43,597 nt of DNA from Proteromonas lacertae (Eukaryota), in assembly GCA_002245135.1 (NCBI GenBank), contig NGBS01000054.1, forward strand, positions 1 to 43,597, read 5' to 3'. Below the pieces are notes generated by a model. The model searched no databases, had not been told where the DNA came from, and saw nothing but the letters and a program-made list of their open reading frames with translations. The position numbers were made by a program, and so were the translations under genes. Position 1 is the first letter of the stretch, and each line of letters starts with the position of its first letter. Positions 10,423-28,810 of this stretch are shown one piece after another.

Positions 10423-10679
10423 ATTCTCTTATGCTTTTATTCACTTTTCTTATCATCTTTATGTAAATATATAACAAAAATAACGAAATTCGATTTTTAT
10501 CAAAATTTTGAATAACCCAAAAATTAAAATGTGATTTAAATCACATGCAGAAGGTGTGATAAAAACAATAATACTCAATTCTGATTCATTAATGCATATT
10601 GCATATGATATGATGATATAAATGCTAATTAATATTTGTTGAAGAAAAGTGAAAATTTAACTTGTAATGCAATATATAT

Positions 10680-10947
10680 AGTATATAAATGGGACTCTGG
10701 CACATTATGCCAGAGTCCTAACGAGTTTTCTAGGGGTCCGTCCCTTTCTAGATTCAGAGTTGACTTTTACGGGAGCTTCATCGATTGCATCGATGAAGCT
10801 CCCGTAAAGGTCAACTCTGAATCTAGAAGGGGACGGACTCCTAGAACACTCGTTAGAACTCTGGCATATTGTACCATAGTCCCATTTACGTAAGGTTCCT
10901 ACGGGATTCCTCCCAACAGGGTCTACTTCTCAACGGGGTCTACTTCC
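10680..10947 (+). repeat. Left TIR of element A, containing a 203-bp imperfect palindrome (10686-10888)
   Basis: Reverse complement of 18385-18651 and near-identical to 19672-19939. Palindrome centre ATCGAT-TGC-ATCGAT at 10787. Confidence 0.97.
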
Positions 10948-10986
10948 TAACAGGGTCTTCTTCCCTACGGGGTCTACTTCCTACGG
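10917..10986 (+). repeat. Four degenerate tandem copies of an approximately 17-bp GGGTCTACTTC-containing unit
   Basis: cagggtctacttctcaa / cggggtctacttcctaa / cagggtcttcttcccta / cggggtctacttcctacgg. The other three termini carry two copies. Confidence 0.85.
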
Positions 10987-11086
10987 TGATTCATTGTCCG
11001 GCATTAAGGGTAATTTCCTTGGCCTTATTGTAGTTTTCATTTTCCTAGCGATCTTGACTTCAACAACTCAACACTCTTTTGATCTC

Positions 11087-13270
11087 ATGAAGCGTAAGCA
11101 ATCCTCCTCATCGTCCGATGATGTTCCTAAGTGCAAGGGTAAGCATCATCGTCTACAGACAGACTCTGAGGTCTTTGTAAGCACTAAGGACAACATCACG
11201 ATCGATGGTATCTCATTGACTAAGCCTAAGAGAAGATCATCATCCACGTTGAAAGCAAAGCAACAGAAACCCAAGGTAGTTGAACTAGATGGAATACAAC
11301 AAGCGATCCGGGCTGCTTTAATGAAGAAGAGTCAGGAAGTACCAGCGATGGACCATAAGCAAGATATCAATACCATCAACAACCCTGAGAAGTCTTTACC
11401 TAGCTACCCTAAAGAGCATCACACCTTATTCCCATCTACATCATCATTCATTGCCCAGGAGAATATCTATTACAATACCTACTTGGATCAGTTAAGGAAG
11501 AAGTTCAAGGACCTTGGAACTTACTTGAAAGTCATCCTCAAGGAGTATATGCACTCAATGATCTTTCCCAATGAATGTTACGATGCTCTTGTCAAGATGA
11601 TAATAGAGGAGGAGGACTCCGAAGGAGTCTTCTTAAGGTACATTACTAGAGCAAGATCCATCGATAAGAACAACTACAATGAGATGGAGCAGGAGTACTT
11701 ACTTACCCGTCACTATCAACTCAAGATTATCTCCGAGAGAATGGATCTCTTCATTAACAGCACCTGTAAGCTCCAAGGAAGTGATCTTCTAAGACCAGCC
11801 TTAAGAAACATCCAAGAACGCCTTGAAGATATACAACACTTTGTCAAGGACTCCAAGATCAAGGAGGATAATACCAACTACTTCATCCTCACATCGCAGT
11901 TCATCGATAAGGTCATCACTTCCCTAAGACAACTTAGTAAAGCTGCTAATCACCTGGTTGTTGAACTAAAGGCTTATGAGAAGATGCTTCAACACGATCA
12001 TCCGATGCTCTTCAAGGACAAGACAATCTCCCTGGATGCATACCTTAAGGCAACTAACTACTTGATCAACTACACTGATGAAGTTATTCAGATCCTGGAC
12101 TCGGAGAAGCTGTATCTTCCTAAGAATCAAATGCTGAAGGTGTTTAAGAAGCTCTATCAATCTCATGAGCATTACGTCCTTAAGGATTCTGCTTACTTCC
12201 TTAAGTGCAAGAGTCAATCCTGGAGCTACGTGAAAGTAGAGAACCGACCTAATACAAGACCAGACTCCGAGAAGGTACTTGTCTTTGACGAGGACAACTT
12301 ACTTCATGCACCCACAGCTGTTACTTACACGCAAATGAAGTTAGTCAAGGAGATGATGGATCACGTATCTCAACGCTACGTAGACTTCAACAAGGAGATG
12401 ATCACCTGGTTGAAATATTACGGTATTGACTTTCAGGATCTTCCAGTTACTTCATTGAGTCTCAACTTTAAGGATTCCATGCAGAAGGAAGAAGGCATCA
12501 CTGGTAATGAGTCCATGGAGGAGGACAATGATGTTAGTAATATCGATGGTAAGCAGGAGGATTCATCTTCAGTAACAACTTCGATCCCGAGTAAGGAACT
12601 TATAAATCCACAACCTCAACAATCTCATGACCGTCTCGACATCTTTAGCAGTGACAACGATACCGATAATGAAGATAATGATAAGGCCGGTAAGGAAGTT
12701 AAATTAACTCCAGTCAATGTCAATGAAGAGAACGTTCCTAAGCTAGTTGATGAATTGCTAGAGCAACCACCTCCACTACCTCCTAAGCCTGTAATCACCA
12801 AGACTGCTGATAAACCTACAATTACAAAGAAGAAGAAGAAGACTCCTAAGCAATCTACTGCTAGTAATCTTCCAAAGCATTCATCAGCAAGATCAAAGTC
12901 CCGATCTAAGGAACCATCAAAGGAACCATCAAAGGAACCATCAATAGAGCCTTCAAAGGAGCCTTCAAAGGAGCCTTCAACAATACCAGTAATCACCAGC
13001 GATGATCTTGAGAAACAATCAGCAGCTTCCTATCTTGTTGAGAATAACCATGAGGATGTCAAGGGCTCTGATGATGATGATGATGATGATGAACTTAACT
13101 TAGCTTCCACGGGACCAAAGTTACCTTCAATGATAAGTCCAGCTCCACAAGAGACTAACTCCTTGGAAGGCACCGAGATAAACAATACCTCGCAGTACAC
13201 CAGTTGTTTACCAGACTTAGAAGAAGAACCGTATATGAACTCACCTATACCTGACTTAAATATGTTTTAA
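11087..13270 (+). CDS. Element A large hypothetical protein (basic N-terminus, helical core, disordered C-terminus with KEPS repeats)
   Basis: ORF 10994-13270, first ATG at 11087 (MKRKQ, NLS-like). No recognisable catalytic motif. Confidence 0.8.
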   Translation: MKRKQSSSSSDDVPKCKGKHHRLQTDSEVFVSTKDNITIDGISLTKPKRRSSSTLKAKQQKPKVVELDGIQQAIRAALMKKSQEVPAMDHKQDINTINNPEKSLPSYPKEHHTLFPSTSSFIAQENIYYNTYLDQLRKKFKDLGTYLKVILKEYMHSMIFPNECYDALVKMIIEEEDSEGVFLRYITRARSIDKNNYNEMEQEYLLTRHYQLKIISERMDLFINSTCKLQGSDLLRPALRNIQERLEDIQHFVKDSKIKEDNTNYFILTSQFIDKVITSLRQLSKAANHLVVELKAYEKMLQHDHPMLFKDKTISLDAYLKATNYLINYTDEVIQILDSEKLYLPKNQMLKVFKKLYQSHEHYVLKDSAYFLKCKSQSWSYVKVENRPNTRPDSEKVLVFDEDNLLHAPTAVTYTQMKLVKEMMDHVSQRYVDFNKEMITWLKYYGIDFQDLPVTSLSLNFKDSMQKEEGITGNESMEEDNDVSNIDGKQEDSSSVTTSIPSKELINPQPQQSHDRLDIFSSDNDTDNEDNDKAGKEVKLTPVNVNEENVPKLVDELLEQPPPLPPKPVITKTADKPTITKKKKKTPKQSTASNLPKHSSARSKSRSKEPSKEPSKEPSIEPSKEPSKEPSTIPVITSDDLEKQSAASYLVENNHEDVKGSDDDDDDDELNLASTGPKLPSMISPAPQETNSLEGTEINNTSQYTSCLPDLEEEPYMNSPIPDLNMF

Positions 13271-13479
13271 CTTAAGGTTACTCTTGTTATTGAATATCAT
13301 TCTTGTTATTGTGGGGTTGCACTGATACTGCTACATAAATCTTATCGGAACATCGTCTATTGATGATAGCCATCACACGATCGCCTATCGGCTGTTGAAT
13401 GATGGTTATCATCAGTCAGTGTTATCCTTGCTTGTGAATCTCCCGATAGAACAACTAACTACGATAACATTAAAAGGAC

Positions 13480-13785
13480 TTACTTTAAGTTTCTTATATA
13501 CACCTTGCAGATCCTTCTGAGTCTAGCAGCTTCATTGACTTTGCCTTTACCTTTACGGGATGTTTTCTTCCTGTTGATCACGTTCTTGATCCAGTCCTTG
13601 ACCTTCCATAAGCTACTTCTTCCTCCGATAGTTAGCAGCTCTAAGTCATCCTCAGAAGTAGAGCTTAAGCTTCTTGCACGATAACCATTCCTTCCTTCAG
13701 GCATCTCCAAGGAGTCCTTGAATTTACCTAGTACTTGTTGCTTGCGCTTCTGTAACTGGTCGTACTCATAATTGATCGGAGCCAT
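13480..13785 (-). CDS. Small basic protein with a GG site followed by an amphipathic Trp helix; candidate virion core protein
   Basis: ATG at 13785. TIGG-RSSLWKVKDWIKNVINRKKTSRKGKGK resembles RRGGSLKSIWGKIKSG in the element C protein at 41747. Confidence 0.5.
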   Translation of the reverse strand: MAPINYEYDQLQKRKQQVLGKFKDSLEMPEGRNGYRARSLSSTSEDDLELLTIGGRSSLWKVKDWIKNVINRKKTSRKGKGKVNEAARLRRICKVYIRNLK

Positions 13786-13900
13786 TGTAGCGTAGATATT
13801 CCTGGGCAATGAGTAAGCTGGCAATCTCCTTTGATACCTTTACATTGAATTTCTTTTGTTTATCCCAACAATTGCAATTAGGAATCAACTCAATAGCTTA

Positions 13901-14566
13901 CTAATCATCCTCATCTAACATACCCAGCTTCATGCACTTTACCGTGATATCCTTCACATCATCTATTCCCAAGGAGATGTTTATTGTGTTGTACTTATCT
14001 AGGTTCATCTTATCGGTAAAGTCAAAGGTCCATTGCCTTATGAAGATGCGGACGATTCTCTCTCCGGGATGTGCAAGACCGTAAATCTTCCTACGATCAG
14101 TCATGGGATTGTACTTCACTAGGAAGCAATTGTCCTTAAAGAGATATTCACCTGATCCTCTAAGCACTTCCTCAGCTTCATGATCATCATCTCCGATAAT
14201 CCTGAAGAGTCTCTTGAGTACCTCCCGATTACGATCCACGATCTTGAGTTTAGCGTAACATTGATGATACATTGGAAGGGTGATCTTCTTATCGTCTGGG
14301 TCAGGGATGAACTTAGCGATGCAATCTATGATCACTGGTTTCTCGGGAGTGATGGTAAGTCTTCGATAGCTATGTCCTTGCTGATGATACTCTGAGTAGA
14401 TGCTAGCCTGACCGTATAGTTCTGATTCCTTTACAGTTGCCTCGTAAGTATAGATTCTCATTACCATCTTTGAAAGCCCTTTCATCATGAACTCATCCTT
14501 ACGATCATCTTCATACTTCTCGGTGATCTCCTTGATTAGATTGAAGTAGCTTCTGTTCTTATTCAT
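13901..14566 (-). CDS. Hypothetical protein, 221 aa, tandem paralogue 1
   Basis: Aligns with 14677-15342: YFNLIKEITEKYE/YFNLIRQVTENYD, IIGDDDHEAEEVLRG/VIGDNKHNAEDVLRG, WTFDF/WTFNF, GIDDVKDIT/GINDVEDIT. Confidence 0.85.
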   Translation of the reverse strand: MNKNRSYFNLIKEITEKYEDDRKDEFMMKGLSKMVMRIYTYEATVKESELYGQASIYSEYHQQGHSYRRLTITPEKPVIIDCIAKFIPDPDDKKITLPMYHQCYAKLKIVDRNREVLKRLFRIIGDDDHEAEEVLRGSGEYLFKDNCFLVKYNPMTDRRKIYGLAHPGERIVRIFIRQWTFDFTDKMNLDKYNTINISLGIDDVKDITVKCMKLGMLDEDD

Positions 14567-14676
14567 CGATCAAGTATAGGAATAAGTTTATTGAACTGAA
14601 TCAACCCCGAGATTACCATCCCTCTGAGAACTATCACTCCTGGAGGATTGAATTCCATGATGGATGGATGAGATCA

Positions 14677-15342
14677 TTACTTGGTATTTCCTTTGAACTC
14701 CTTCCTTGCAGCTATGCATCTATCAGTGATGTCCTCCACATCGTTGATACCAACAACGACTTCTAAGGTGTGGTACTTGGAGTAGTCCTTTGAGTCAATA
14801 AAGTTAAAGGTCCATCTAGGGAGTCTTAAACGAAAGATCCTCTTACCAAGACTTGCTAGGTGTTGGAACTTACTAATTGTTTTAGCAGCCCGTAGCTGAC
14901 ATTGCAACTGTACATAATCAGTTCCTCGGGAATTGCTTACTATTATCGTTCCTCTTAGAACATCCTCAGCATTGTGTTTGTTATCTCCGATCACATCGAA
15001 GAGCTTCCTTAAGGTCTGATGATTGTGATCATGGATCTTCAGATAAATCCTATTGTCACCTAAGTCCCGAACAACACTTCCAACACAGTCCACAATCACG
15101 GGGATCACCGGAGTGATGGTTACCTTCCTTGGTCTTGGAATGCCTATATCCATAAAGCTTTTTATCATAGCATCCCCGTAAGTGTCAGAGTCTTCTACTC
15201 GTATCTTATAAGTGAAGAGCTTCTCAATCTTCTCCTGTCTGGTTGTCTTCTTCGGGAAGGTCAATTCCTCCTTACGTTCCTGATCGTAGTTCTCGGTGAC
15301 TTGACGGATCAGGTTGAAATAGTTCTCATTCATTGACTTCAT
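14677..15342 (-). CDS. Hypothetical protein, 221 aa, tandem paralogue 2
   Basis: Paralogue of 13901-14566, same motifs and length. Confidence 0.85.
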   Translation of the reverse strand: MKSMNENYFNLIRQVTENYDQERKEELTFPKKTTRQEKIEKLFTYKIRVEDSDTYGDAMIKSFMDIGIPRPRKVTITPVIPVIVDCVGSVVRDLGDNRIYLKIHDHNHQTLRKLFDVIGDNKHNAEDVLRGTIIVSNSRGTDYVQLQCQLRAAKTISKFQHLASLGKRIFRLRLPRWTFNFIDSKDYSKYHTLEVVVGINDVEDITDRCIAARKEFKGNTK

Positions 15343-15459
15343 CGGATGAGAATTATCGGACTGCCCTCAACTTACTTTGTTAATTAAGTCTTGACGTTTC
15401 CCAGAATTGACTTTTTTTTTTACTCACTCCTGGTAATCACGCAATTCCCGGTCATCTCC

Positions 15460-16275
15460 ATGAAGATAAGGATTCCTCCGAAGAATGAACTTAGAGCAAA
15501 TGCAAAGTCCCATCAACACGATAAGCTAGCCCAGAAAGTAATAGCAACCCTTGGAATTCTTAAGCCTAGACAATCACTTACTTTAGTTCACCAGGAAGTG
15601 TTATCTCAAGAGTCTTCATCGCCATTATCAATTCGTTGTGGTTCAGATACTGGTTCAGATACTCCTTCAAGAACATCATCGTCTCTGACTTTACCGAGTG
15701 ATGATAAGGACTCCATCGTTTATCAAGAATGTTACCTCGAAGTTCCCTTTACAGCAGTACCAAAGGCTTTCATCAATCTAAGCATAGATGGGAATGTAAA
15801 GGGTTTTGTTTGTTGTGGCAGCTCCTTCTACATTGCTTTATTAGCTTCACTTCATCGTGAGGAGATCAAAGGTATTCACAAGAAAAACCTTGTAAGATTC
15901 CTATGGTTCAAAGCGTTCTCGTACTACCTACGGCTAAGTGAATGCATCTCCAATCCCTTACTATGCGATAAGTCGATTACCAAGATAGAGGAGGACAATC
16001 ATCTATCCATTAACGTATTCAAGATGCTTCAGAAGCCAGATCTTCACTTAGTCCCTTTACGTACTTCGAAGACACCTTCCAATGATTCCTATAAGCAGGT
16101 GAGCTTGCTTTACCTGGAAGAGAATTGTAAGCCTTCAACATCTCCTAGTACGGATACTCACAATGATGAATCTCTTAGAGGCTCTACAATCATCCATTTC
16201 CATTACGTTACCATCGTTGATCCGTCTATGAGCTTATCAACCCAAGACAAGAGAAGTAATAGAATCACCATGTAA
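15460..16275 (+). CDS. Hypothetical protein, probable member of the gene family shared by A, B and C
   Basis: ATG at 15460. YLEVPF...NLSIDGNVKGF...SFYIALL resembles FVSVPY...QVQLRGTIHQI...NFIIQLL of 27000-27329. Confidence 0.65.
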   Translation: MKIRIPPKNELRANAKSHQHDKLAQKVIATLGILKPRQSLTLVHQEVLSQESSSPLSIRCGSDTGSDTPSRTSSSLTLPSDDKDSIVYQECYLEVPFTAVPKAFINLSIDGNVKGFVCCGSSFYIALLASLHREEIKGIHKKNLVRFLWFKAFSYYLRLSECISNPLLCDKSITKIEEDNHLSINVFKMLQKPDLHLVPLRTSKTPSNDSYKQVSLLYLEENCKPSTSPSTDTHNDESLRGSTIIHFHYVTIVDPSMSLSTQDKRSNRITM

Positions 16276-16276
16276 G

Positions 16277-17023
16277 TTAGAAGAAGAAGTCTGGCCTTTG
16301 ACGTCTATTGATCATGCGTGTGATAATCCTACTCCATTGATCTATCAACTCCGACAACTCGTTAAGGATCTTGCTTATTGAATCTAGTCTTTGTTGGGTG
16401 TAGTCAACGATATAGATATACCTTGTAGCTACCTTAGTGCTGGTTACCGTAGTGACTTCATTGTCTTGTTCACTACTAGGCCTTGAAGGTTGTTGGCATC
16501 TCCTTAATTCCTCTTGAGATAGTCTACTCCTTCCTACGTGTTCCTCCAATTCCTTCTCACGACCACGTCTCCTTACCGAGAAGATTGCAAGGTAATTGAT
16601 CTCCTTATGAAGCTGCTGATCCATCTTCTTGAAATCAACCTTACCAAGGATCGGTAAGTTGCTAGTTACCTCCTCATCGTCGAAGTCTTCTAGGTATTGA
16701 CTCATCATGGACTTATCGATATAAGCAAGTTCCTCAGCGATGGCACTTAGGACATAGTACAATTGACTTAGCTGAATCTTGTTAGTCTTCACCTTTCCTA
16801 GAACTTCAAATGATCTCCTTGTCTTCTCAGTTGAGAACATCCCATCACAGTTATTGAACTCTCCGAGGACACCTCCCTTATCTAACAATGAACGGATCAT
16901 CGCTATAGCTCTTCTTATCAACTGAGAGTACTGCCTCTCACAACCCTGGTGCTTGAGATAATCCTTTACCCTCTGGTTCCTTTGCAGCAACCTCTTATCG
17001 GTAGTGTTCTTGAAGTATTGCAT
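16277..17023 (-). CDS. Hypothetical helical protein, 248 aa
   Basis: ATG-initiated ORF, tail-to-tail with the 16275 stop (1-bp gap). Confidence 0.75.
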   Translation of the reverse strand: MQYFKNTTDKRLLQRNQRVKDYLKHQGCERQYSQLIRRAIAMIRSLLDKGGVLGEFNNCDGMFSTEKTRRSFEVLGKVKTNKIQLSQLYYVLSAIAEELAYIDKSMMSQYLEDFDDEEVTSNLPILGKVDFKKMDQQLHKEINYLAIFSVRRRGREKELEEHVGRSRLSQEELRRCQQPSRPSSEQDNEVTTVTSTKVATRYIYIVDYTQQRLDSISKILNELSELIDQWSRIITRMINRRQRPDFFF

Positions 17024-17344
17024 TCACGGGAGGTGTTCAGAAATTGCTTACTGCCGAGATAGTTGAACTTTTCCGATGCCTCCTTCTATAGATCACTATG
17101 TGTCCGGCATTAAGAACATTTACTTACTATCCTTCTACGTAGTGCTAGTATCAATGGTCCTTGCCTTTATCGATATGAAGCTTCAGAGAATACAACACCA
17201 GGTAAGATTATTTCTTCATGATGACCTTGATGGATTCAACAATCGTTTCTTAAGATTTTACCCAGCTGATCTCCTGCTCCTTGTAGGTAACAATGTAGTT
17301 CCCGTGAATGAGGTTTTCGACGATGACTTCCTAGATGATGAAAC

Positions 17345-17641
17345 TTACTTACAATGGAGGATGCATTGGCCTTTAAGATAACTAGATCTCCCGCTTATCG
17401 TTGTGGTTGATGGTACCTTTGCTTTGTTGGGATGATCGAAAAACATCATCTTATCGGGGATAGGTACAATGGATAAGCACCTAGCCTGGTTCTGAACAAT
17501 GTGAAGGTTCAGTAACAGATTACCCAGTGATTGGTAAAGAGCTAAAGGCTTCTTCCGTAAAGTACCATTCATGATCATGATGGAGTGGTAGGGTAGTTTG
17601 GAACTGACTGCTTGCTGATCCTTAAGGATGTTATCCTCCAT
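17345..17641 (-). CDS. Possible small hypothetical protein, 98 aa
   Basis: ATG-initiated ORF only. It overlaps the end of an opposite-strand ORF (17076-17381). Confidence 0.3.
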   Translation of the reverse strand: MEDNILKDQQAVSSKLPYHSIMIMNGTLRKKPLALYQSLGNLLLNLHIVQNQARCLSIVPIPDKMMFFDHPNKAKVPSTTTISGRSSYLKGQCILHCK

Positions 17642-17911
17642 ACTCTTCAGAATTGAATTAGTTTACCTAGACAATTAACAAGGACGATGAGACTTACCTT
17701 CAGAAGACTGTTGAGATTGCTGCTATCTCTTTTCAAGGTCCTTGAGAATTATAGAAATGATTGAAGCCTCCCGAAGTCACCATTGTATACTTGTTAACAA
17801 TTGTAAAGTCCCAGTTCTTCATTGAGTTGTTCATTGAGTTCCAAGATTGCCCTGTTGATTACCCTAGCTTTTCAATGGCCTTGTAAATTGACTGATTAAT
17901 AGAAGAACCAT

Positions 17912-18019
17912 CAAGACCTTCCCAGATACGTCCAGCCGTGCATGACTGCGTCAGGGAATCTCCCATGAAGGGAGATTCCCTTCCTTGCCAACACGGCTGT
18001 TCTTCTCGGGAAGGTCTTG
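17912..18019. other. Nested three-stem hairpin in a non-coding region; candidate structured RNA or cis element
   Basis: CAAGACCTTCCC/GGGAAGGTCTTG, CAGCCGTG/CACGGCTG and AGGGAATCTCCC/GGGAGATTCCCT around an ATGAA loop. Confidence 0.75.
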
Positions 18020-18074
18020 GATGAACTTACCTAGGAGAGTTATAAGGATGATAAAACATACCTTCAGAAGCCTT

Positions 18075-18651
18075 CCGAGATTGCTAATCATTATCTTCAA
18101 GGGCCCTTGAGAAATCCACAACTAGCTAGAACCTCCCGGAGTTACCATTTGGTAACTTGTTAACAATTGTTAACTTGTTACCAATTGTAAACTCCCGGTT
18201 CCACGATTGGTTTCCACGGTTCAATTAAAAGCCCTTACAAGGTCACCAGCGTAGCAAGGAGAGTCAAGAGCATGATTAGAATCATCACCTCGAGGTAACC
18301 AACACTTCTAGATAGTTTACAGGAGTACCCGTAGGAGATCGTCTCATAGATAGGTATAGAAATAGCATAGAGGAGTTCCCGTAGGGAAGTAGACCCCGTT
18401 GAGAAGTAGACCCTGTTGGGAGGAATCCCGTAGGAACCTTACGTAAATGGGACTATGGTACATTATGCCAGAGTTCTAACGAGTGTTCTAGGAGTCCGTC
18501 CCCTTCTAGATTCAGAGTTGACCTTTACGGGAGCTTCATCGATGCAATCGATGAAGCTCCCGTAAAAGTCAACTCTGAATCTAGAAAGGGACGGACCCTA
18601 GAAAACTCGTTAGGACTCTGGCATAATGTGCCAGAGTCCCATTTATATACT
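18075..18651 (-). repeat. Right end of A: TIR (18385-18651) plus an extended common region, inverted copy of 19672-20249
   Basis: About 577 bp near-identical to the left end of B in reverse complement. Hairpin at 18444-18645. Confidence 0.97.
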
Positions 18652-18797
18652 ATATATGCAATTAGTGTGAATATACAAGTTATTTTTAAATTTTTTTATA
18701 TCACTACTTTTAGTATATTAATTATTTCAAATATAACATGTATAATCAGACAAAATCATCACTCTTCAACAAGCAATTACAACATAATATACATAAA

Positions 18798-19555: not shown

Positions 19556-19671
19556 ATACTATTGAAACAATAGGTTATATATTATTATTTATACTTCTAT
19601 GTTAATAACAGTATTATTGATTCATAATTATAATATTACAATAAATTGTATATCTTAGTTAAAAAGTATAT

Positions 19672-20249
19672 AGTATATAAATGGGACTCTGGCACATTAT
19701 GCCAGAGTCCTAACGAGTTTTCTAGGGGTCCGTCCCTTTCTAGATTCAGAGTTGACTTTTACGGGAGCTTCATCGATTGCATCGATGAAGCTCCCGTAAA
19801 GGTCAACTCTGAATCTAGAAGGGGACGGACTCCTAGAACACTCGTTAGAACTCTGGCATAATGTACCATAGTCCCATTTACGTAAGGTTCCTACGGGATT
19901 CCTCCCAACAGGGTCTACTTCTCAACGGGGTCTACTTCCCTACGGGAACTCCTCTATGCTATTTCTATACCTATCTATGAGACGATCTCCTACGGGTACT
20001 CCTGTAAACTATCTAGAAGTGTTGGTTACCTCGAGGTGATGATTCTAATCATGCTCTTGACTCTCCTTGCTACGCTGGTGACCTTGTAAGGGCTTTTAAT
20101 TGAACCGTGGAAACCAATCGTGGAACCGGGAGTTTACAATTGGTAACAAGTTAACAATTGTTAACAAGTTACCAAATGGTAACTCCGGGAGGTTCTAGCT
20201 AGTTGTGGATTTCTCAAGGGCCCTTAAAGATAATGATTAGCAATCTCGG
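19672..20249 (+). repeat. Left end of B: TIR (19672-19948, hairpin 19678-19880) plus extended common region
   Basis: Inverted copy of 18075-18651. Confidence 0.97.
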
Positions 20250-20689
20250 GAGCTTCCTAGAGGTAAGTTACAATGACCTTATAATTCACCTAGGTAAAGT
20301 GTTCCAATGCTCAACAATTGTCCGGGAAAAATGAGACTGATAGACCGTAGAAACTACGGGGGGTTCTACGTTCTGAATAGCATGGAGGATGCAGAGAAGT
20401 CAACACTCCGAGAACTCCATAGTCGTACTTTTCTTGCAATCGCTGATAAGTAAAATTACCATGGATAGCAATATTGATTCTAGTAGTCTTGCGAAGCTTT
20501 CCAGGGATGAGTTAGAAGCATTGATCATCAAGGTCGAGAAGGAACAACAAGATCTGAAAGAGCATAAAGGAGAAGGCAAAGGGTAAGGCTTCGGAAGTAA
20601 CTTCAAGGAAGCGTAAGTTCAATGCTAAGTACTACATCCGATGCATCGATCAGGAGTCAGCTAAGGAATGTCTCACGCTTACCAAGGAG

Positions 20690-21076
20690 ATGGAGGAGTA
20701 CTTCAAAGAGATCACAGGCATGACTGATGAGGAAGCTTCCGTGATCAACAACCAGGAGGAAATAATGAAGGCTGTGAAGATAAAGTCCATCGCTGATTAC
20801 CTATTGAAGTCCTTGACCTTACAAGTACAATTCAAGGAGTCAGAGGATCGCAGCAAGACTCCATTCCCGATACTACCTTACAACTACGAGGTATTCTTAA
20901 CTAAACGCAACCAAGGAAAAGCACTCAGCAAGAGGATGAAACTCAAGATGGAAGCAACTGTTCATGACAACTTACCAAGAGAAGACAACTCCCTTGATAG
21001 TAAACCCTCGGAAGAAGCAACAACCCAACAAGACAACTTATCAGAAGCAGAAGATGACTTTAACGCGGCCTTCTAA
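20690..21076 (+). CDS. Hypothetical protein; may have an upstream part at 20461-20586
   Basis: ATG ORF whose stop abuts the stop of 21077-21646. Weak resemblance to 33734-34372 (YFKEITGMTDE vs LYNYISGMKSE). Confidence 0.6.
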   Translation: MEEYFKEITGMTDEEASVINNQEEIMKAVKIKSIADYLLKSLTLQVQFKESEDRSKTPFPILPYNYEVFLTKRNQGKALSKRMKLKMEATVHDNLPREDNSLDSKPSEEATTQQDNLSEAEDDFNAAF

Positions 21077-21646
21077 TTAACAGTACTCCAGGACATAGAA
21101 GCAAGGATGAACTAACACCTTAAGTAATGTTTTCTCTTGGCTCTGTTGGACTGTTTGCTTAAAACACTTCATAAGACTGACAGAGGATAACAGGCACTTG
21201 AAGTAATGATAGGAACAGTCCTTAGAAGTCTCTTGCTCTATGTCCTCCATAGGTTGATCAGGGCTGGTAAGTAGCTCCATCATGTTGAAGTCAAGGGAAT
21301 CGTAGGAGAGTACCTGATGATCATACTCAATAACCTCAAGTAGATCCAAGGACATTGTAAGCACATCCTTCAAGGAGTTGATAAAGGACTGATGAAACAT
21401 CCCTGGCCATTGCACCGGCCTTACATTATTCAACTCAACCTTGATAAAGCCATCGGAAGATGATCGATCGAAGGAGTAAACACTCCCGTAAACAACAAAG
21501 CTAAAGTTCATACTCAAGGTGTTCATGGTCTTCTCCTCCATACTGTTGATGAACTTACAAGGATAGCTATCTCGGAGAAGTATAGCAAGGTGATCATCGT
21601 CAGGTAAAGGACTAGAGGAATTGTCGGGAGATTGATTGCAGCTCAT
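21077..21646 (-). CDS. Hypothetical protein, probable member of the shared family
   Basis: SFINSLK and VLVHPCFYV parallel MFIKSLR and VRIFPHYEI in 27401-28327. Confidence 0.7.
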   Translation of the reverse strand: MSCNQSPDNSSSPLPDDDHLAILLRDSYPCKFINSMEEKTMNTLSMNFSFVVYGSVYSFDRSSSDGFIKVELNNVRPVQWPGMFHQSFINSLKDVLTMSLDLLEVIEYDHQVLSYDSLDFNMMELLTSPDQPMEDIEQETSKDCSYHYFKCLLSSVSLMKCFKQTVQQSQEKTLLKVLVHPCFYVLEYC

Positions 21647-21717
21647 TACAATGCACGATGAAAATCAAGGACTATGAGAAGCTCAATAAATAATTTCCCA
21701 AGATAAAACATAAGGAC

Positions 21718-22161
21718 ATGGACACCAAAGTTATAAGCAATATTGTAATCCCTTCAGCTCACTTGCAACCCAAAGAAGAAGAAGACAAGACCGAGGATAA
21801 CCAAGAAGGAGATATCCAAGAAGTCGAAGACCAAGGAACTGCACCTACTTCAACACCATTGACTGAGTCACAATCAAGTGAGTTATTCATGGAAGTCAAG
21901 ACTGAAGAAGTCAAGACTGCAGAAGTCAAGACTGAAGAAGTTAAACAACCAGAGTTAGAAAGAGACCGAAGTAGTCATCACTTACACGATGAACAAGACC
22001 TAGATGCTGAGCTTATTGAAGACATGACTGACGAAGAGATTACTAACTTAAGAAAACACCTTGAGGAACTTATCGAGGTAGAGAAGGAGTCTAAAGATGA
22101 AGACAAGGATGAGGATGAGGATGATAACAACGAGATCCAGGAAGTAAAAGACTCTGAGTAA
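21718..22161 (+). CDS. Acidic low-complexity protein with EVKTE repeats
   Basis: ATG ORF of 147 aa. A similarly acidic ORF occurs in C (40270-40743). Confidence 0.75.
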   Translation: MDTKVISNIVIPSAHLQPKEEEDKTEDNQEGDIQEVEDQGTAPTSTPLTESQSSELFMEVKTEEVKTAEVKTEEVKQPELERDRSSHHLHDEQDLDAELIEDMTDEEITNLRKHLEELIEVEKESKDEDKDEDEDDNNEIQEVKDSE

Positions 22162-22251
22162 AGTAATCATAAGGAGGTACTCATAAGGAGGAACTTATAA
22201 GGAGCAACTCGCAAGGAGGTACTTACAATATCTCTTTTCTCAGGAGTAATC

Positions 22252-22824
22252 ATGAACAAGTTCAAGAGATTCAACTTAGCTGATAGACGAAGAGTACTTT
22301 TCAAAGGCAATGGAGTAGACAAGGATGATTACAATGACCTTCATGAAGCTTACTTACAATCACTAGCAAGAGAACGTCAAGGAGCTATCTCCCGAAGAAG
22401 GAATCGAAGGATAGATGAACTCCGAGGAATGCTCAGAGACTACAACACGGAACATCCGATGATGGGTAAGGATGCAGAACTCCAAGGAGCTTACAATGTA
22501 GCTAGTGACTATCTTACTGCCTTGGAGAACAATGAGTTGATGAGTCAAAGGATGGCAAAATCGTTGATCCCCAAGAAGACTAAGAGCAAGAACAAGAGAG
22601 TTGCTTACAAGACAGACTCCATCGTAGATGCGATATCAACTCCTGGCTTCCTTGTAGTTCCTACAATCATGAAGAGCATTGAAGCTGACCGTGAAGTAAG
22701 TGACTCCTCCGAGGATCTCGACCCTTTAACAATGATGATGATGATGATGAAACAAGGAGCCAGAGGAAGCTCCGATGATGGTGATGAGAATACAATGGCC
22801 TTACTAAGTCAACTACTTACTACT

Positions 22825-22855
<31 letters not shown>

Positions 22856-23151
22856 AAACAAAGAAACCTACCTCTGAGGATATCAAGAAGGTAATGGACT
22901 CACTCAAGACTGAATACTCCGATACAGTCTTCAATGAACTAGCCAACTCCATCCATCCTACTCCTATTACCGAGAATAAGTATGAGAATGATAGTAAGTA
23001 CGGAGTCTCTGATGAAACAAAGGAATCCGATGGGCTTGGAATGTTAACTAAGGAACTGGAGCAGACAATTGAAGATATCAATAACAACAAGACCGTAATT
23101 GACCTTCCTGAAGAAGAAGAGTCTGATGAATCAACTTCTGAGGAGGAGTAG
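22252..23151 (+). CDS. Hypothetical protein, N-terminus related to the frameshifted C gene at 42929-43496
   Basis: YNDLHEAYLQSLARE...RNRRIDEL vs YQNLYQNYLTSTAKD...RDEQIEQI. Confidence 0.8.
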
Positions 23152-23196
23152 ACAGAATATCATCAGTAATTCATTTCCCTTAAGTATAGTCTTGTT

Positions 23197-23391
23197 ATGA
23201 CTAAGAAACTCAACAAGAAGCAAAAGGCAAAGCTCAAGGAGCTGATCATCAAGAGATTGAATCAATGTAAAGCAACTCCTAGCAGTCACTACTCTGACCT
23301 TTACAAGAAGTACTACCAGGCAATCACTGATCATTACAAGGATGTCGATATCAATGTCCATGGCAATGAAATAGACTCCTCCGATCTCTAG
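23197..23391 (+). CDS. Small basic protein, possibly the N-terminal part of 23418-24440
   Basis: Lys-rich start plus HYSDLYKKYYQ, echoing the start of the C gene at 42929. Confidence 0.5.
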   Translation: MTKKLNKKQKAKLKELIIKRLNQCKATPSSHYSDLYKKYYQAITDHYKDVDINVHGNEIDSSDL

Positions 23392-23417
23392 TAATCCATT
23401 TCTCTCTAGTAAAGGCG

Positions 23418-24440
23418 ATGAGAAGCAAGGCAAGTAGCAAGAGTCCCAAGAAGGTAAAGACAAGTGATGATCCTCTGGTGATCATCAAGAAGCAATTGTT
23501 GGAGGAGTTCAATAAGAAGGTTGAAGGTATCACCGATGTTAAGAAGCTCTCAGCAATGACCGTGAAGATGATGGAGAACAACACCAAGGTAATGGAAGGT
23601 AACAATCAGCAGATAGTATCGATGAACTTAACTCCCAGCAATATACAATCAGGTACTATGGTAAACAACTCCCCAGCAAGAGAACTTTACAAGGCCAACA
23701 TGATTAACCAGTACGGTAAAGCCAACTACTATAACTACCGAGACTTTGCTGGTAACATCAACACTCCAGCTTCAAGGAACCTCTCAGCACTCTATCCCAA
23801 TCAATCAACTTACTATCGCAATCCATCGGTAAGTCTTCCTAGCTTACAACAGCAGGCTAAACAAAATCAATGGATGAGCAATCCCCATCTAGTCTATCAA
23901 CAGAACACTGCCCAGATCAACAACGTTCTTAGCAACTTACAATCAATGATCGAGAAGTACAAGTACGCAGCTCCTGATCAGAAACCATTGATCAGGACAA
24001 GCATAATCAGCTTCATCGAGAACTTAAGGAACGCTACCAACACCGGAGCTACGAACAGTGATGTTACCAGAGCAGTCTTCAATTATATCAACAACCCAGA
24101 AATCAAAGGCCTCTTGAACTTCTCCGATGAGATGATCAAGACTTCCTTTGGACCGACAATGTACCAGAGCTTCATGGACGTCACCAACAACACGATTGGA
24201 GCAGTCGGAACCACTGCAGACTTCGGAAGGAACTTACTTAACCTCAGAGATGCTTACAATAAAGGAACCTTATGGAGCAACCCACAACAAGTGATTGGAA
24301 ATGCTGCTGGGTTAGTTCAGAACCTTGGTAACTTCGGAACATCCCTGGACAATGGCTTTCAAGCAGTCAAGAGACTCTTTGGATATGGTAAGGTAGGAAG
24401 AAGAATCCCCTTATGGAAGCTTTACCGAAGGCGTAAGTAA
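23418..24440 (+). CDS. Putative virion core or minor protein with a C-terminal amphipathic helix, LFGYG site and basic tail
   Basis: Directly upstream of the minor capsid gene. Ends GFQAVKRLFGYGKVGRRIPLWKLYRRRK. KKLSAM...QQIVS...REL...NYYNY matches the C protein. Confidence 0.7.
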   Translation: MRSKASSKSPKKVKTSDDPLVIIKKQLLEEFNKKVEGITDVKKLSAMTVKMMENNTKVMEGNNQQIVSMNLTPSNIQSGTMVNNSPARELYKANMINQYGKANYYNYRDFAGNINTPASRNLSALYPNQSTYYRNPSVSLPSLQQQAKQNQWMSNPHLVYQQNTAQINNVLSNLQSMIEKYKYAAPDQKPLIRTSIISFIENLRNATNTGATNSDVTRAVFNYINNPEIKGLLNFSDEMIKTSFGPTMYQSFMDVTNNTIGAVGTTADFGRNLLNLRDAYNKGTLWSNPQQVIGNAAGLVQNLGNFGTSLDNGFQAVKRLFGYGKVGRRIPLWKLYRRRK

Positions 24441-24494
24441 GAGACTTATGGTAAATCGTTATTCAGTCTTTTCTCTAAGATCATTTACTCGGAC

Positions 24495-25457
24495 ATGTCC
24501 AACCAAACAAGAACGATCAGCATTAGCTCAGCTAGAAGAATTGCCCAGAAGAATAAGTACGAATTGATCATTGCTATCCCCACCGATGTAAGGAAGGACA
24601 ACTACAAGTACATTGCCTTGAAGTATGCTAGCATCCCCAACTCCTTCTATGTTGTCCAAGAAGGAGTCAATGACCAGATGACCTATGTCTTCCAGATCGC
24701 TATCCGTACTGTAGGAGATAAGTATGAACACGTAGAGTTCAACTACAACATGACAATCCCTCAAGGAGACTATAGTGGTGATGAGCTCCTTGCAATGTTC
24801 AACAGTCCCTTTGAGAAACTCACTCAAGGAGAAGTTATCAAAGTGATAAAGACCGTCCATCCAGAGTTAGAAGCAAGTAGTACCGGAAGCAACCTCCTTA
24901 TGTTTGATCCATCAACAGCCTTTGGTAAGAAGAAGTGCACGTCCTCTGATCCTCATCATATCCACACAACTAATTTAACCTTTACAGGAGCTAGTAATGT
25001 CATCGGCCTTAAAGCAAACAACATCGCTGGTAATGAGTATACAGGAGCCTTCATCTGCTCTATCAAGTTAAAGTCTCCAGGGATTGCTTATCGATTCCTC
25101 GGGATGGGAGATACTCAATATGTCCTAGCTGATCATCAACACACTTCATCCAGTCTATTGACTTACAAGTATCCAGAAGTAACATTGCCTGGAGAGCCTA
25201 CGATCATCTGGGTAGACTCTGTAAGCATCAGGATGGACATGGTGAACCAAGATCAAGACTCCAAGATCCTAGAAACTTTCCCTATCGTGGATTTTACCCA
25301 GCCTTACATTGCCTTCAACAACAACGATCTCATCTCCCGAGCAAAGCAATTAGGTAACTACACGGAAGGTCAAGTAATCGTTAGCATTACCCAACAAGAT
25401 GGCTTCCAGCTAGACCTCAAGATGCATGACTACAACTTCGAGGTAGCCTTATTCTAA
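24495..25457 (+). CDS. Minor capsid protein (penton, single jelly-roll), PLV/virophage type
   Basis: ASIPNSFYVVQEGVND and IPQGDYSGDELL are typical of PLV pentons. Immediately upstream of the MCP. Homologous to 34482-35471 (PTIIWVDSVSIRMDMVNQDQDS). Confidence 0.8.
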   Translation: MSNQTRTISISSARRIAQKNKYELIIAIPTDVRKDNYKYIALKYASIPNSFYVVQEGVNDQMTYVFQIAIRTVGDKYEHVEFNYNMTIPQGDYSGDELLAMFNSPFEKLTQGEVIKVIKTVHPELEASSTGSNLLMFDPSTAFGKKKCTSSDPHHIHTTNLTFTGASNVIGLKANNIAGNEYTGAFICSIKLKSPGIAYRFLGMGDTQYVLADHQHTSSSLLTYKYPEVTLPGEPTIIWVDSVSIRMDMVNQDQDSKILETFPIVDFTQPYIAFNNNDLISRAKQLGNYTEGQVIVSITQQDGFQLDLKMHDYNFEVALF

Positions 25458-25508
25458 GTTCCTTTCCATTGAATCATTTCCTTTGTGTATTCTAAGGAGT
25501 TATTAGCA

Positions 25509-26879
25509 ATGTCAACTCAAGTGATCATCCCCGAGGAGCAACAACATGCTCCTATCATCCCAATCATGAATCCACTCTACCAGACGATAAAGCTTACTCC
25601 TACTCAATCTTATCCTAAGGTCGACTGCCCAGAGCAAGGCATGACTCCTGAGATCACCTTTGAACTCCCTGGTAATTACTGCAGCAACTTAAGCAAGAGT
25701 TACATCCAGTTCTACGTTGACTATTACGGTAACAATGGAAAAACTATGGAACCTGATATTAAGAATGCTGATAAGTCAGGGGATTGGAAGTTCTTTTACG
25801 ATACTTACGTGTTATCCAACTCTTATAACTTAACCGAGATCAAGGTCTACAACTCCAATGGAGTTCAGTTACTGTATGCAGATCATCAGTATGAGTTGTT
25901 CCGACAAATGATGGTTCAAGTGGCAAGGAAGAACATTGATAAGTATAATCAGAAGGTTTACTTTGATGGTTGCTATGCTGAGGAAAGCAAAGACACTGAG
26001 GACTATGAAGTCATGGAGTTTAAAGTAGAAGAATTAAAGGACGGGCATTACCGACGTCTAGTAAAGATCTTCCTTGGAGAGCTCTTCAATACAATACTTA
26101 GTTCAGCAACAGATGTCTTCTTCTCGGAGAAGCTATTCATCACTTTGAGATTCGGTAAGGCTGATGGTTTCTACAACCCTAAGGAAAGTAAGAGTACTAA
26201 GTTCAATGAGATGAAGGATAGCACAGCTAAGGATATGACCGATCCAGTAAAAGCAAAGATGATAGAACCCAAGGTAAAAGTTAGCCTAGACAACTTCTAC
26301 TTCTACGTGAAGGTTAACAAGGATCCAGCCTGTAATGACAACACGATCAAGTATTGCCTTAACAAGACAATTGACTTCAATGACTTCCATTGCTTTACTG
26401 TCACTAGCAGCTCCGGCATGGACTTCTTTCGATATACCTTTACCTTGAATAGTAGTCTCGGTAAGTACATCAAGTTCATTGCCTATCGTCCTTATGATGG
26501 GAACGACAAGATCCAGAAGCTAGATAAGCAAAGTACTAAGTTCAGATGGCTTATCAATGACTTCCAATACAACCCAGACTTTGTTAACCTCAAGGACTAT
26601 GATAACTACCACATGATAAAGCCTTTGCTAGCCTGTAGCTGGCACGATCAGTACAACTACGTTCAGGAGGAAGATAAGTTCATCGAGGTACTCAACTTTA
26701 GTAACTTTGGCTTATTCGATCTCCAAAATAGACAAGGCAAGAGAATGGATCAAGATATTAAGTTTACCTTTGAGATGTACTCCGACACCCTCAAGACCGA
26801 GAACATCTTCCATCGCTTCTACGTGGTCACTGGCCGAGGAGCTACTGTCAATGAAAGTGGTATCGTGAACATCATCTAA
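25509..26879 (+). CDS. Major capsid protein (double jelly-roll), PLV type
   Basis: About 456 aa, beta-rich. ITFELPGNYCSNLSKSYIQF is a PLV-MCP-like N-terminal motif. Full-length homology to 35508-36935, which sits beside a packaging ATPase. Confidence 0.82.
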   Translation: MSTQVIIPEEQQHAPIIPIMNPLYQTIKLTPTQSYPKVDCPEQGMTPEITFELPGNYCSNLSKSYIQFYVDYYGNNGKTMEPDIKNADKSGDWKFFYDTYVLSNSYNLTEIKVYNSNGVQLLYADHQYELFRQMMVQVARKNIDKYNQKVYFDGCYAEESKDTEDYEVMEFKVEELKDGHYRRLVKIFLGELFNTILSSATDVFFSEKLFITLRFGKADGFYNPKESKSTKFNEMKDSTAKDMTDPVKAKMIEPKVKVSLDNFYFYVKVNKDPACNDNTIKYCLNKTIDFNDFHCFTVTSSSGMDFFRYTFTLNSSLGKYIKFIAYRPYDGNDKIQKLDKQSTKFRWLINDFQYNPDFVNLKDYDNYHMIKPLLACSWHDQYNYVQEEDKFIEVLNFSNFGLFDLQNRQGKRMDQDIKFTFEMYSDTLKTENIFHRFYVVTGRGATVNESGIVNII

Positions 26880-27329
26880 AGGACGATGATCGGAGAGATC
26901 ACCTCATACTTGGGATAGATGATATCGATGGAAGGAGTTCTCTTGATTGTGAGCTGATGGTTCTTTACCCACAAGACAACTTCCTTATAAGTGCAGTCCT
27001 TATCTATCCCGTGTAGATCTTGGTGACTTGCTTACAACAACATAGACTTGCTTAACGTTATCGGGAGAGGCTGGTAAAGCAACATTGTACTTTGCCTGAA
27101 TCTTGCATTGCTTCTCGGCAATCATTAGCATCTGGTTCTTCAACTCCTCGGAGATGTTCCTCCAGCACTTGAGCTCTCCATTGTTGAATCGTAGGAAGGT
27201 AACATTCAGGAGCTGGATGATGAAGTTCTTGTCAGTCTCAATGATCTGGTGAATCGTTCCTCGGAGTTGTACTTGCCATTGAAGTGCATAAGGAACACTT
27301 ACAAAGATGTTATTATCGGTGCTATCCAT
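26876..27329 (-). CDS. Shared-family protein interrupted near 27000-27035 by a +1 frameshift or a 37-nt intron
   Basis: The N-part matches 38675-39418 (DNNIFVSVP/DKENVYVSLP). The shifted frame continues DCTYKEVVLWVK...IIYPKYEVISPIIVL*, matching YIYPKFEL. Its stop overlaps the MCP stop. Confidence 0.65.
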
Positions 27330-27400
27330 AGACGATTGAACCCAATATCAAAAGTTAATGATAATCAGTAAAGCCTTAAGAAGAAGTTAAGTACTAGGAA

Positions 27401-27467
27401 TTAAGCCGATGTTGAAGTCATTGAAATAGCTGCTGGTTGCTCAGGGTTCTGAGGAGTCTCTTGAGGC

Positions 27468-27501
<34 letters not shown>

Positions 27502-28327
27502 GAACTCCTTGAGGTGCAACTACTTGAGTAGGAGTAGGAGTAGGAATAACTACTTGAGGAATCATCCCTTGAGGGAACTGAGGTTGTGGAGGCTGATAAG
27601 CATTCATGGAGATGTCCTTGATCTCGTAATGAGGAAAGATACGTACAGGTTGAATAAAGTTACCTCCTGTTGTAGTTCCATCGCTAGACACTTCCTTACC
27701 GGGATAGATAACTGCATCCTTGATCACTAGCAAGAACATGAAGACTTTACCGACGTTACTATAGATGTTCTGCTTAAAGGCCAAGAGCTTCTTGTTGCTT
27801 CTCTTCCAGAGAGTTGCATTGAGAGTACCTGATCGAGGAGTTGAAACATAGGTGGTGTTGGTGATCTGAAGATGCTTAGGGAAGGTTGGATCTTGTTGAG
27901 TTGCCATAGCCACGTTGTATCGTAAGCTCTTGATAAACATCTCGGTGTTGTTGGAGTCAATGAAGAAGGACATCACCCTGGTAACATTCAACTGGAGGTA
28001 GTAGTTGGTATCATACTCGGAGATCTTTTCAACCATGGCTTCAACATAGAAGTGTACTTGATCTTGCTTAAGGAAGTAGTGCCAGTACTTACCACAGATA
28101 CGGAGCTGGGGCTTCTCAGGTTGTAATTGTCGTTGTTGCTGGGCAGCTCCGGGAAATGCAAAGGAATTTGAAGGAGCCGATGGAGACATCATCATCACTG
28201 GCTGGGATATCACGGGTTGATTCATCATTGGTAAGACTGAAGCTGGATTGAAAGAAGGAGCTGTCATAGGAGCAGGCATTGCTGGGTAAGGAACTTGTTG
28301 CATAGCTGGTTGATTGAAAGAGTTCAT
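27401..28327 (-). CDS. Shared-family protein with Gln/Pro-rich termini
   Basis: Core TNYYLQLNVTRV and VRIFPHYEI vs TNYHLLSFNRIKV and FYIYPKFEL in 38675-39418. PolyQ tract. Confidence 0.8.
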
Positions 28328-28533
28328 AGGAAACGATAAAGTAGTGAAAGATAAGATCGACCAAGAAATATATGACTGAAGTGAACCTAAGAAGGAACCT
28401 GAGAAGAAACCTTCAAAGGGATCGTAGAACCATCCTAGTCTTTACAATTGGTTTCCACGGTTCTGTAGATGAACTTTTCTTTGAAAGAGTTCTTCTCGTA
28501 GAATACTCCTTGAAGATCATCCTGTAAGAGATC

Positions 28534-28810
28534 TTCCCGTAGGGAAAGTAGACCCCGTTGAGAAGTAGACCCTGTTAGGAGGAATCCCGTAGGAACCTTA
28601 CGTAAATGGGACTATGGTACATTATGCCAGAGTTCTAACGAGTGTTCTAGGAGTCCGTCCCCTTCTAGATTCAGAGTTGACCTTTACGGGAGCTTCATCG
28701 ATGCAATCGATGAAGCTCCCGTAAAAGTCAACTCTGAATCTAGAAAGGGACGGACCCTAGAAAACTCGTTAGGACTCTGGCATAATGTGCCAGAGTCCCA
28801 TTTATATACT
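28534..28810 (-). repeat. Right TIR of B (hairpin 28603-28804)
   Basis: Reverse complement of 19672-19948. Confidence 0.97.

Follow-up and report, generated by a model that had tools for sequence, protein, structure and literature searches.

We analysed a window of 43,597 nt, the whole stretch of DNA considered here, from Proteromonas lacertae (contig NGBS01000054.1, assembly GCA_002245135.1). Two inserted elements, E1 and E2, stand out in it by a GC content of about 42%, against 23-25% in the background. A third one, E3, probably begins further to the right. The elements and the genes that serve to classify them are the following.

10674..18656 (no strand): element E1, 7983 nt, GC 0.418, TIR of about 273 nt, orphan ORFs only
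19667..28816 (no strand): element E2, 9150 nt, GC 0.423
24495..25457 (+): probable gene for the minor capsid (penton) protein of E2, 320 aa, from its position and its homology to the gene before the E3 MCP
25509..26879 (+): double jelly-roll MCP gene of E2, 456 aa, from a structure model and Foldseek
31250..31309 (+): probable left end of E3, a short repeat tail plus the TCTGGCACA motif, without the long fold-back

A sequence-only reading of this DNA had noticed TIR-bearing segments with shared ends. This observation holds. E1 and E2 are two TIR elements whose genes do not overlap, and none is common to both. The TIR that they share measures about 273-283 nt at 99% identity. Moreover, E1 at its right end and E2 at its left end have 631 nt in common at 97%. 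A single gap separates these two ends in the first 550 nt; the identity then fades, to 42/50 and 33/50. The ends of E1 and E2 have clearly been homogenised. We discarded the idea of a single composite insertion because each element has its own target duplication (TSD). About 460 nt inside the shared long end there is a second, looser palindrome of 64 nt, made of 18-bp repeats (18135-18198 and 20126-20189). An older, diverged duplicate of that region lies about 365 nt further in, at E1 17653-17817.

The ORFs of E1 encode 727, 271, and 248 aa, two 221-aa paralogues, and smaller products. All of them are orphans. The two 221-aa paralogues lie in tandem (13901-15342) and are 36% identical; no relatives were found, and Atlas returned for this ORF hypothetical proteins only, with low recognition. 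We also considered related ssDNA-binding proteins as the products of the 221-, 308-, and 247-aa ORFs, without finding support. Only the 727-aa ORF was judged long enough for a pPolB. It lacks the pPolB motifs tested and gave no usable Atlas match. No capsid gene was found in E1. The element also contains an imprecise internal duplication, a 149-nt match at 74%.

The 456-aa protein of E2 was identified by its fold. Its model, built with 25 sequences in the alignment, reached a pLDDT of 77.3; an earlier model from 2 sequences had a pLDDT of 38, and the fold search on it was uninformative. With the better model, Foldseek matched the PBCV-1 capsid (E 9e-12), Sputnik (1.6e-10), and the mavirus MCP (4.6e-10), and also an iridovirus. 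In the BFVD viral library the top matches start at E 4.5e-14, and many are named major capsid proteins. A profile search gave 23 relatives. The 10 of the 23 that were looked up are all Logan-assembly proteins without names. The MCP has no Pfam match. Word-index protein searches with the MCP, the 221-aa pair, and a host gene gave no match, and neither did PDB sequence searches. Likewise, searches for related DNA with the MCP, the MCP alignment, a distant MCP, and the E3 ATPase found none. The 320-aa ORF just before the MCP gene is 27% identical over 326 aa to 34527-35459, the gene preceding the E3 MCP, and has no family match. From position and homology, it is probably a minor capsid (penton) protein.

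Given the double jelly-roll capsid protein of E2, we regard E1 and E2 as elements of polinton-like viruses (PLV). They have the PLV traits of a double jelly-roll MCP (in E2) and TIRs of some hundred nt with a 5-6 bp TSD. A packaging ATPase was not detected in them, and they have neither the full length of 14-40 kb nor detectable genes for replication and integration. As for strict Polinton/Maverick traits, short tandem repeats are present at the tip, while pPolB and the rve integrase were not detected. Pfam and motif scans of 95/95 stop-to-stop frames of at least 50 aa in E1 and E2 detected no polymerase, integrase, HUH/SF3, resolvase, protelomerase, or ATPase, although such scans are insensitive for this orphan family, as even the E2 MCP has no Pfam match. 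Walker A is absent from all 95 long frames, neither element has a PolB motif or an rve integrase Pfam match, and no terminal protein was found in them. A bare HUH-like regex pattern matched once, towards the C-terminal end of the 271-aa ORF, without family support. The sequence-only reading had proposed to search these segments for HUH/SF3, protelomerase, or pPolB genes. Since none was detected, the replication and integration proteins would come in trans. The best classification for E1 and E2 is as PLV-derived, non-autonomous elements that are mobilised in trans, and not as complete PLVs.

The subject of this work is the structure at the element ends. Its parts, as seen at the left end of E1, and the other three copies are listed below.

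10668..10673 (+): left TSD of E1, TGCAAT; its partner is 18657-18662
10674..10685 (+): TA-repeat tail outside the palindrome, 12 nt, true end of E1; no complementarity with the sequence further inboard
10686..10785 (+): outer arm of the fold-back, 100 nt; putatively the ancestral and constrained copy
10692..10718 (+): nested 11-bp stem without mismatches (-13.4 kcal/mol), with a 5-nt loop and CTGGCA motifs in inverted orientation
10786..10788 (+): loop, TGC on the 5'-end strand and GCA (a GNA triloop) on the 3'-end strand
10789..10888 (+): inner arm, putatively a later inverted duplicate; 7 mismatches common to all copies plus 1 private to this copy
10856..10882 (-): decayed counterpart of the nested stem in the inner arm; 3 changes common to all copies, -3.5 kcal/mol in the E2 left copy
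10894..10981 (+): 17-bp tandem repeats adjoining the hairpin on the inboard side, possibly iteron-like
18444..18645 (-): hairpin copy at the E1 right end, 202 nt
19678..19880 (+): hairpin copy at the E2 left end, 203 nt, 7 mismatches
28603..28804 (-): hairpin copy at the E2 right end, 202 nt

The true ends lie further out than previously thought. The hairpin had been described as starting 6 nt inside an AG end, but this dinucleotide is not the terminus. A scan of boundary registers found perfect 6-bp TSDs at E1 and E2, 5-6 nt outside the AG. The TSD of E2 is AAAAAG (19661-19666 and 28817-28822). The register within the TA run is ambiguous, and 5-, 6-, or 7-bp duplications fit; those registers that agree with both elements all put the end outside the AG. 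Symmetric 11/11 tails would require one mismatch in the E1 duplication. With the AG as the end, E1 shows a 6-bp match of TA type and E2 one of just 4 bp. The background chance of a 6-mer TSD match is 0.0012 each, before allowing for the choice of register. Placing the end at the AG would thus make both outer duplications accidental, each with a chance of about 0.001.

The palindrome is a fixed part of the terminal repeat shared by two PLV elements, placed 11-12 nt inside the true end. The shared long ends show that E1 and E2 are oppositely oriented, and each then has one 11-nt and one 12-nt tail. The tail is identical at both ends of each type, and TA repeats occur at all four tips. Compared with the sequence inboard of the inner arm, it matches at 3/11 or 4/12 positions, and so it is not complementary. 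Lacking an inboard template, it could not be templated by an unfolding hairpin. Folds of 20-60 nt and of the full length all left the 3' end unpaired. What had been described as an unpaired end of 6 nt is thus 11-12 unpaired nt between the 3' end and the stem. We also considered whether the TA tail is an opened mini-hairpin. This was rejected, since TA repeats make symmetry trivial and the tail at the probable E3 end is asymmetric.

Inside the tail, the imperfect fold-back is present as first described, with 100-nt arms, a TGC loop, and 7-8 mismatches. A hairpin of 203 bp had been claimed for every terminus. It occurs at 4/4 ends; its length is 203 nt in the left-hand copies and 202 nt in the two right-hand ones. 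The copy at 10686-10888 has 8 mismatches between its arms versus 7 in that at 19678-19880. The same 7 mismatches and the same apex recur at 4/4 ends of E1 and E2. Folding the terminal repeat had been suggested as a check. The DNA fold of the palindrome has an energy of -100.3 kcal/mol (z = -25.3), and 0/200 shuffles are equally stable. On the 3'-end strand the stem reaches -105.7 kcal/mol. The GNA triloop on this strand (GCA) has a chance of 1 in 16. An Rfam scan gave one generic hairpin match, far below the threshold (34.6 vs 100 bits), and hairpin patterns had 0 matches in viral and metagenome contigs.

The four end copies differ at 1-3 positions in 270, and no compensatory change is demonstrable among them. 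The difference in length comes from a G run, with four G at the left ends (10733-10736) and three at the right ends (18596-18598 and the matching E2 positions). It tracks the + strand in the assembly and not the type of end. This 1-nt gap may be a consensus error. As the sequence-only reading had stated, the orientation relative to the end is identical in 4/4 integrated copies (0/4 flipped), which has a chance of 0.125 under even flip/flop. Taken alone, this is weak evidence against flip/flop.

The two arms are not equal. The outer one carries the 11-bp stem noticed earlier, perfect at 10692-10718, a stem length that 0/3000 mononucleotide shuffles of the arm reached. Three of the 7 shared mismatches (positions 12, 16, and 32) fall within it, which is unremarkable for 22 stem positions (P = 0.18). 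At all three the outer copy is intact and the inner copy is broken (-13.4 vs -3.5 kcal/mol). By simple arithmetic, this one-sidedness has a chance of about 1 in 8. The arm mismatches as a whole are evenly spread, as expected of neutral decay, and 5/7 are transitions.

The probable E3 end gives these changes a direction. A host gene fragment at 31050-31260 belongs to the sole host paralogue pair found by blastn in the window, and E3 appears to interrupt this gene, which is paralogous to 8422-9333. Near-identity to the intact copy ends at 31249, with 2 mismatches in 70 nt and then 4 in 13. The window's best match to the first 40 nt of the E1 end starts at that breakpoint, and it is the only site with a score of at least 30 among 5254 windows. 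On score alone the match is not significant window-wide (25/200 and 22/200 shuffles reach 33). However, it coincides with the breakpoint and points towards the E3 genes, both noticed together, and for this reason we take 31250 as the likely left end of E3. There the long fold-back is missing (best stem 7 bp, z = -1.95), which suggests that it is not required across the clade. The sequence-only reading would have given up its proposal if relatives lacked the palindrome. The outcome is divided: it is absent from this probable end of E3 and kept at 4/4 ends of E1 and E2.

Alignment of the probable E3 end scores 31 with the outer arm version and 23 with the inner one, which polarises positions 12 and 16. 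If the 31250 site is indeed the end of E3, its agreement with the outer arm, without a long fold-back, would make the outer arm ancestral and the inner arm a later inverted copy. The palindrome thus likely arose by inverted duplication of the terminal 100 nt, with the inner arm as the later, unflipped copy. Regular flip/flop would not leave such one-sided decay, which argues against hairpin transfer of the parvovirus type. This is a stronger argument than the orientation count at four ends.

For PLVs and virophages without pPolB of their own, the text of a 2026 preprint (10.64898/2026.07.28.741278) proposes hairpin priming as the way in which ends with palindromes are copied. For E1 and E2 we favour another role, as a tentative choice and somewhat short of an even chance. 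The 203-nt palindrome would be a fold-back cap that rebuilds a duplex origin and leaves the tail free for initiation by helper proteins, without acting as a self-primer. Helper proteins in trans would excise or copy the element. When the end turns single-stranded, as a displaced strand or a 3' overhang, local folding into the 100-bp stem would be immediate. The folded stem would rebuild duplex with the CTGGCA sites, shield the end from nucleases, and keep the TA-repeat tail single-stranded. Synthesis would begin at the tail, most likely protein-primed with jump-back on the repeats. Copying in the order tail, outer arm, loop, and inner arm would never flip the orientation. The tail would stay available for an RVE-type integrase making a 6-bp duplication.

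Initiation at the tail is preferred because it accounts for all features without extra steps. The short tandem repeats at the ends, together with the Maverick precedent, count for it: the text of PMC8097293 links motifs of this kind at Maverick ends with the jump-back step of protein-primed replication. The 6-bp TSDs count for an rve-type integrase, since these integrases typically make 6-bp TSDs, according to the text of PMC12220804. Protein-primed synthesis at Streptomyces telomeres acts on folded palindromic 3' overhangs with GNA loops, as described in the text of PMC5449611. The priming mode is one that we infer, because E1 and E2 yielded neither polymerase nor terminal protein nor integrase in scans that are insensitive for this family. 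Several facts count against a cap. The mismatch spread is neutral-like, compensatory changes are lacking, and the fold-back is missing at the probable E3 end. In addition, the end palindromes of Halocafeteria go preferentially with non-pPolB elements (text of 10.64898/2026.07.28.741278).

Some of the same facts would suit a functionless relic, in which a single template switch at a fold-back made an inverted duplicate of the terminal 100 nt, end-to-end copying spread it, and the inner arm decays neutrally. The inner arm bears all three polarisable changes, the mismatches are evenly spread with 5/7 transitions, and the terminal motif stands without a fold-back at the probable E3 end. Other decaying duplications exist in the elements, such as the 149-nt one inside E1, and the homogenised ends of E1 and E2, with their single gap, agree with end-to-end copying. 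Long near-perfect palindromes are prone to deletion. Nevertheless, this one has been retained at 4/4 ends of two elements with different genes. End palindromes also recur in 5 Halocafeteria subtypes (text of 10.64898/2026.07.28.741278), which suggests selection. A relic explains the data nearly as well as a cap, and we see it as possible, on the doubtful side. An artefact of assembly or amplification, a fold-back chimera, is hardly credible. One hint of a consensus error inside the palindrome is the 1-nt gap, which goes with the assembly strand. However, chimeras would yield perfect arms at random places, and here the same apex and 7 mismatches occur at four loci, correctly inverted, between perfect TSDs.

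Self-priming by the hairpin has a different cost. The 3' tail would be trimmed as a flap, the stem would prime a host or helper polymerase, and the tail would be recopied from the other TIR. The very stable stem on the 3'-end strand (-105.7 kcal/mol) and the failure to find pPolB in E1 or E2 speak for it. The Halocafeteria preprint, in which end palindromes occur preferentially in non-pPolB elements, proposes such priming in its model D (text of 10.64898/2026.07.28.741278), and a single orientation is reported for one parvovirus left end (text of PMC1185569), so the missing flip/flop is not fatal alone. Against this, 11-12 nt would have to be trimmed and restored by a separate repair step, as the tail has no inboard template. 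Strand-by-strand reasoning leads one to expect arm-swapped ends, but 0/4 are of this kind, and the nested stem of the inner arm shows decay. Nor was an HUH or SF3 gene detected: in 95/95 frames of at least 50 aa there were 0 relevant Pfam matches, and the regex match of HUH type mentioned above is the only one. Rolling-hairpin replication with hairpin transfer swaps the arms and copies only sequence in or inboard of the hairpin. Under these rules, a non-templated tail would not be preserved, and both arms would be under the same selection. Parvovirus-like rolling-hairpin replication at these ends is thus not supported, given the unpaired 3' tail of 11-12 nt without inboard template and the one-sided decay of the inner arm. 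The wider idea of hairpin priming fares better, because a published model proposes the same for PLV and virophage ends. Trimming and repair from the other TIR can rescue it, and the parvovirus with a single orientation offers a precedent, so we keep self-priming as an unlikely alternative and do not discard it.

The palindrome could also be a signal for resolution or packaging. Cruciforms would be cut by a junction resolvase to give a linear genome with hairpin ends, as in poxviruses, and a packaging protein would read the mismatches. An imperfect palindrome is indeed present at both ends of each element, and mismatches in the vaccinia hairpin are needed for virion maturation (text of PMC8956199). 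E1, which is without a capsid gene, would need a cis signal common to E2 if it is packaged. Nevertheless, resolution would discard the tail, which is incompatible with tail-bearing insertions flanked by TSDs, and both isomers would be expected. Scans of E1/E2, of low sensitivity for this orphan family, detected neither a resolvase nor a protelomerase. We consider this role decidedly unlikely.

End palindromes in the TIRs of PLVs and virophages are already known, and the present one is a longer, set-back variant. According to the text of 10.64898/2026.07.28.741278, palindromes lie within TIRs and adjoin TSDs in virophage subtypes 1, 2, 5, and 6 and PLV subtype 4 of Halocafeteria seosinensis. 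They occur preferentially with non-pPolB replication genes, and hairpin priming is proposed, with accidental annealing as the alternative. The likeness is evident: a palindrome in the TIR next to the TSD (here it starts 11-12 nt from it) of an integrated double jelly-roll element without pPolB. However, the Halocafeteria example given in that text has 52 nt at the extremity of the TIR, whereas ours has 203 nt, is imperfect, and lies 11-12 nt inside the end. The nested stem, the one-sided decay, and the size of 8-9 kb without a detectable replication or integration gene also set our elements apart from those in that text. No description of a set-back version of about 200 nt, or of a segmented PLV, was found in the literature covered, and the figures and supplements of the preprint, which lie outside that scope, may hold set-back or longer cases. 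The texts of PMC11296320, 10.1101/2022.07.28.501842, 10.64898/2026.10.13.758929, PMC8547959, PMC6431247, and PMC10214139, as far as they were covered, contain neither a set-back palindrome of about 200 nt nor a segmented PLV. The additions of the present case are the corrected end, the non-templated tail, and the asymmetry of the arms. Together, they argue against a role as flip/flop primer in the E1/E2 family.

Other terminal structures resemble this one in part. Mavericks/Polintons have TIRs of a few hundred nt, a 6-bp TSD, and tandem repeats at the tip that suit jump-back (text of PMC8097293). E1 and E2 are half their size and without pPolB, integrase, ATPase, or protease. The covered text of PMC8097293 on Maverick ends has 0 occurrences of a hairpin. 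Streptomyces telomeres offer an analogy, since palindromes with GNA loops fold in the 3' single strand and template protein-primed synthesis (text of PMC5449611); our palindrome likewise has a GNA triloop, GCA, on the 3' strand. These telomeres are bacterial, with several short palindromes from the first nucleotide and the Tap/Tpg proteins (same text), and we claim no homology. Parvovirus telomeres also are imperfect terminal palindromes of similar length (text of PMC1185569). Unlike them, our elements have an unpaired 3' end with an outside tail, no Rep/NS1 found, a double jelly-roll capsid, and TSDs from integration. A base-paired 3' OH is lacking, no HUH or SF3 gene was detected, and flip/flop is not seen (0/4, counted in integrated copies only). 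In the same way, a resolvase or protelomerase gene, expected with closed-hairpin telomeres of the poxvirus or protelomerase type, was not found in E1/E2.

Two further systems bear on the pairing of E1 with E2. Bidnaviruses are Polinton-derived and have two components with a conserved terminal structure (text of PMC4061559), which makes them the closest precedent for a segmented E1/E2. They differ in their ssDNA, parvovirus-type capsid, own PolB, and inverted terminal repeats that do not form hairpins (same text). The truncated EMALEs of Cafeteria are short, integrated, gene-losing elements with TIRs (text of PMC8547959), and they offer the ordinary reading of E1 and E2. E1 and E2 differ from them in that they have no genes in common with each other. 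The covered text of PMC8547959 has 0 occurrences of palindrome or hairpin.

E1 and E2 may be either deletion derivatives or segments. In the second case, they would be parts of a multipartite double jelly-roll protist virus, with the shared end module of 270 nt as origin and packaging signal, and a third segment would carry polymerase, integrase, and ATPase and serve all of them in replication, packaging, and integration. This module comprises the repeat tail, the nested stem, the 200-nt fold-back, and the 17-bp repeats. The lack of shared genes, the intact ORFs, and the perfect TSDs are points for segmentation. The gradual fading of the end homology, from 100% up to about 550 nt to the lower values given above, is expected of replicons that have coexisted for long. 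No segmented PLV was found in the literature at the level of titles or abstract openings. We consider segmentation fairly unlikely. Should the two co-replicate as segments, then a segmented virus with a double jelly-roll capsid would use the end module as its cis signal. The locus offers a test of the hairpin-priming model from sequence: the tail and the arm decay say that the hairpin is unflipped and probably not a primer. The comparison of tail, arm asymmetry, and outgroup end is applicable to any genome with many copies.

The third element, E3 (31250-43597), is PLV-like, has a host-like GC (0.26), and runs off the window. It carries a probable minor capsid gene, an MCP, an ATPase-like ORF, and two small basic ORFs rich in Arg/Gly (41183-41596, 41747-42067). 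Its MCP is 35% identical to that of E2. The ATPase-like ORF has weak AAA matches and a PHROG match with E 1.8e-5. The probable minor capsid gene contains one in-frame stop codon (34872-34874), and the other ORFs follow the standard code.

A palindrome of 639 nt at 32895-33533 was considered as the end of E3 and rejected, because its own 6-bp TSD and TG..CA ends make it a separate fold-back element. It is non-coding, with arms of about 299 nt at 95%, a spacer of 43 nt, and 17-bp tandem repeats at both ends. Its TSD, CTTGTG, is perfect. It resembles a MITE from an rve/Ginger-type family that has moved into the probable E3.

Three PLV-type insertions and this MITE thus lie within 33 kb (10674-43597). 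The gap between E1 and E2 is 1010 nt, and their TSDs are separate. The cluster possibly reflects a hot spot or co-delivery. Among the host genes, the window contains an EMP70 gene (E 2e-73). Between E1 and E2 there is a fragment of a host coiled-coil gene (18798-19046, - strand), whose C terminus presumably resembles CEP290; this would imply a flagellated host.
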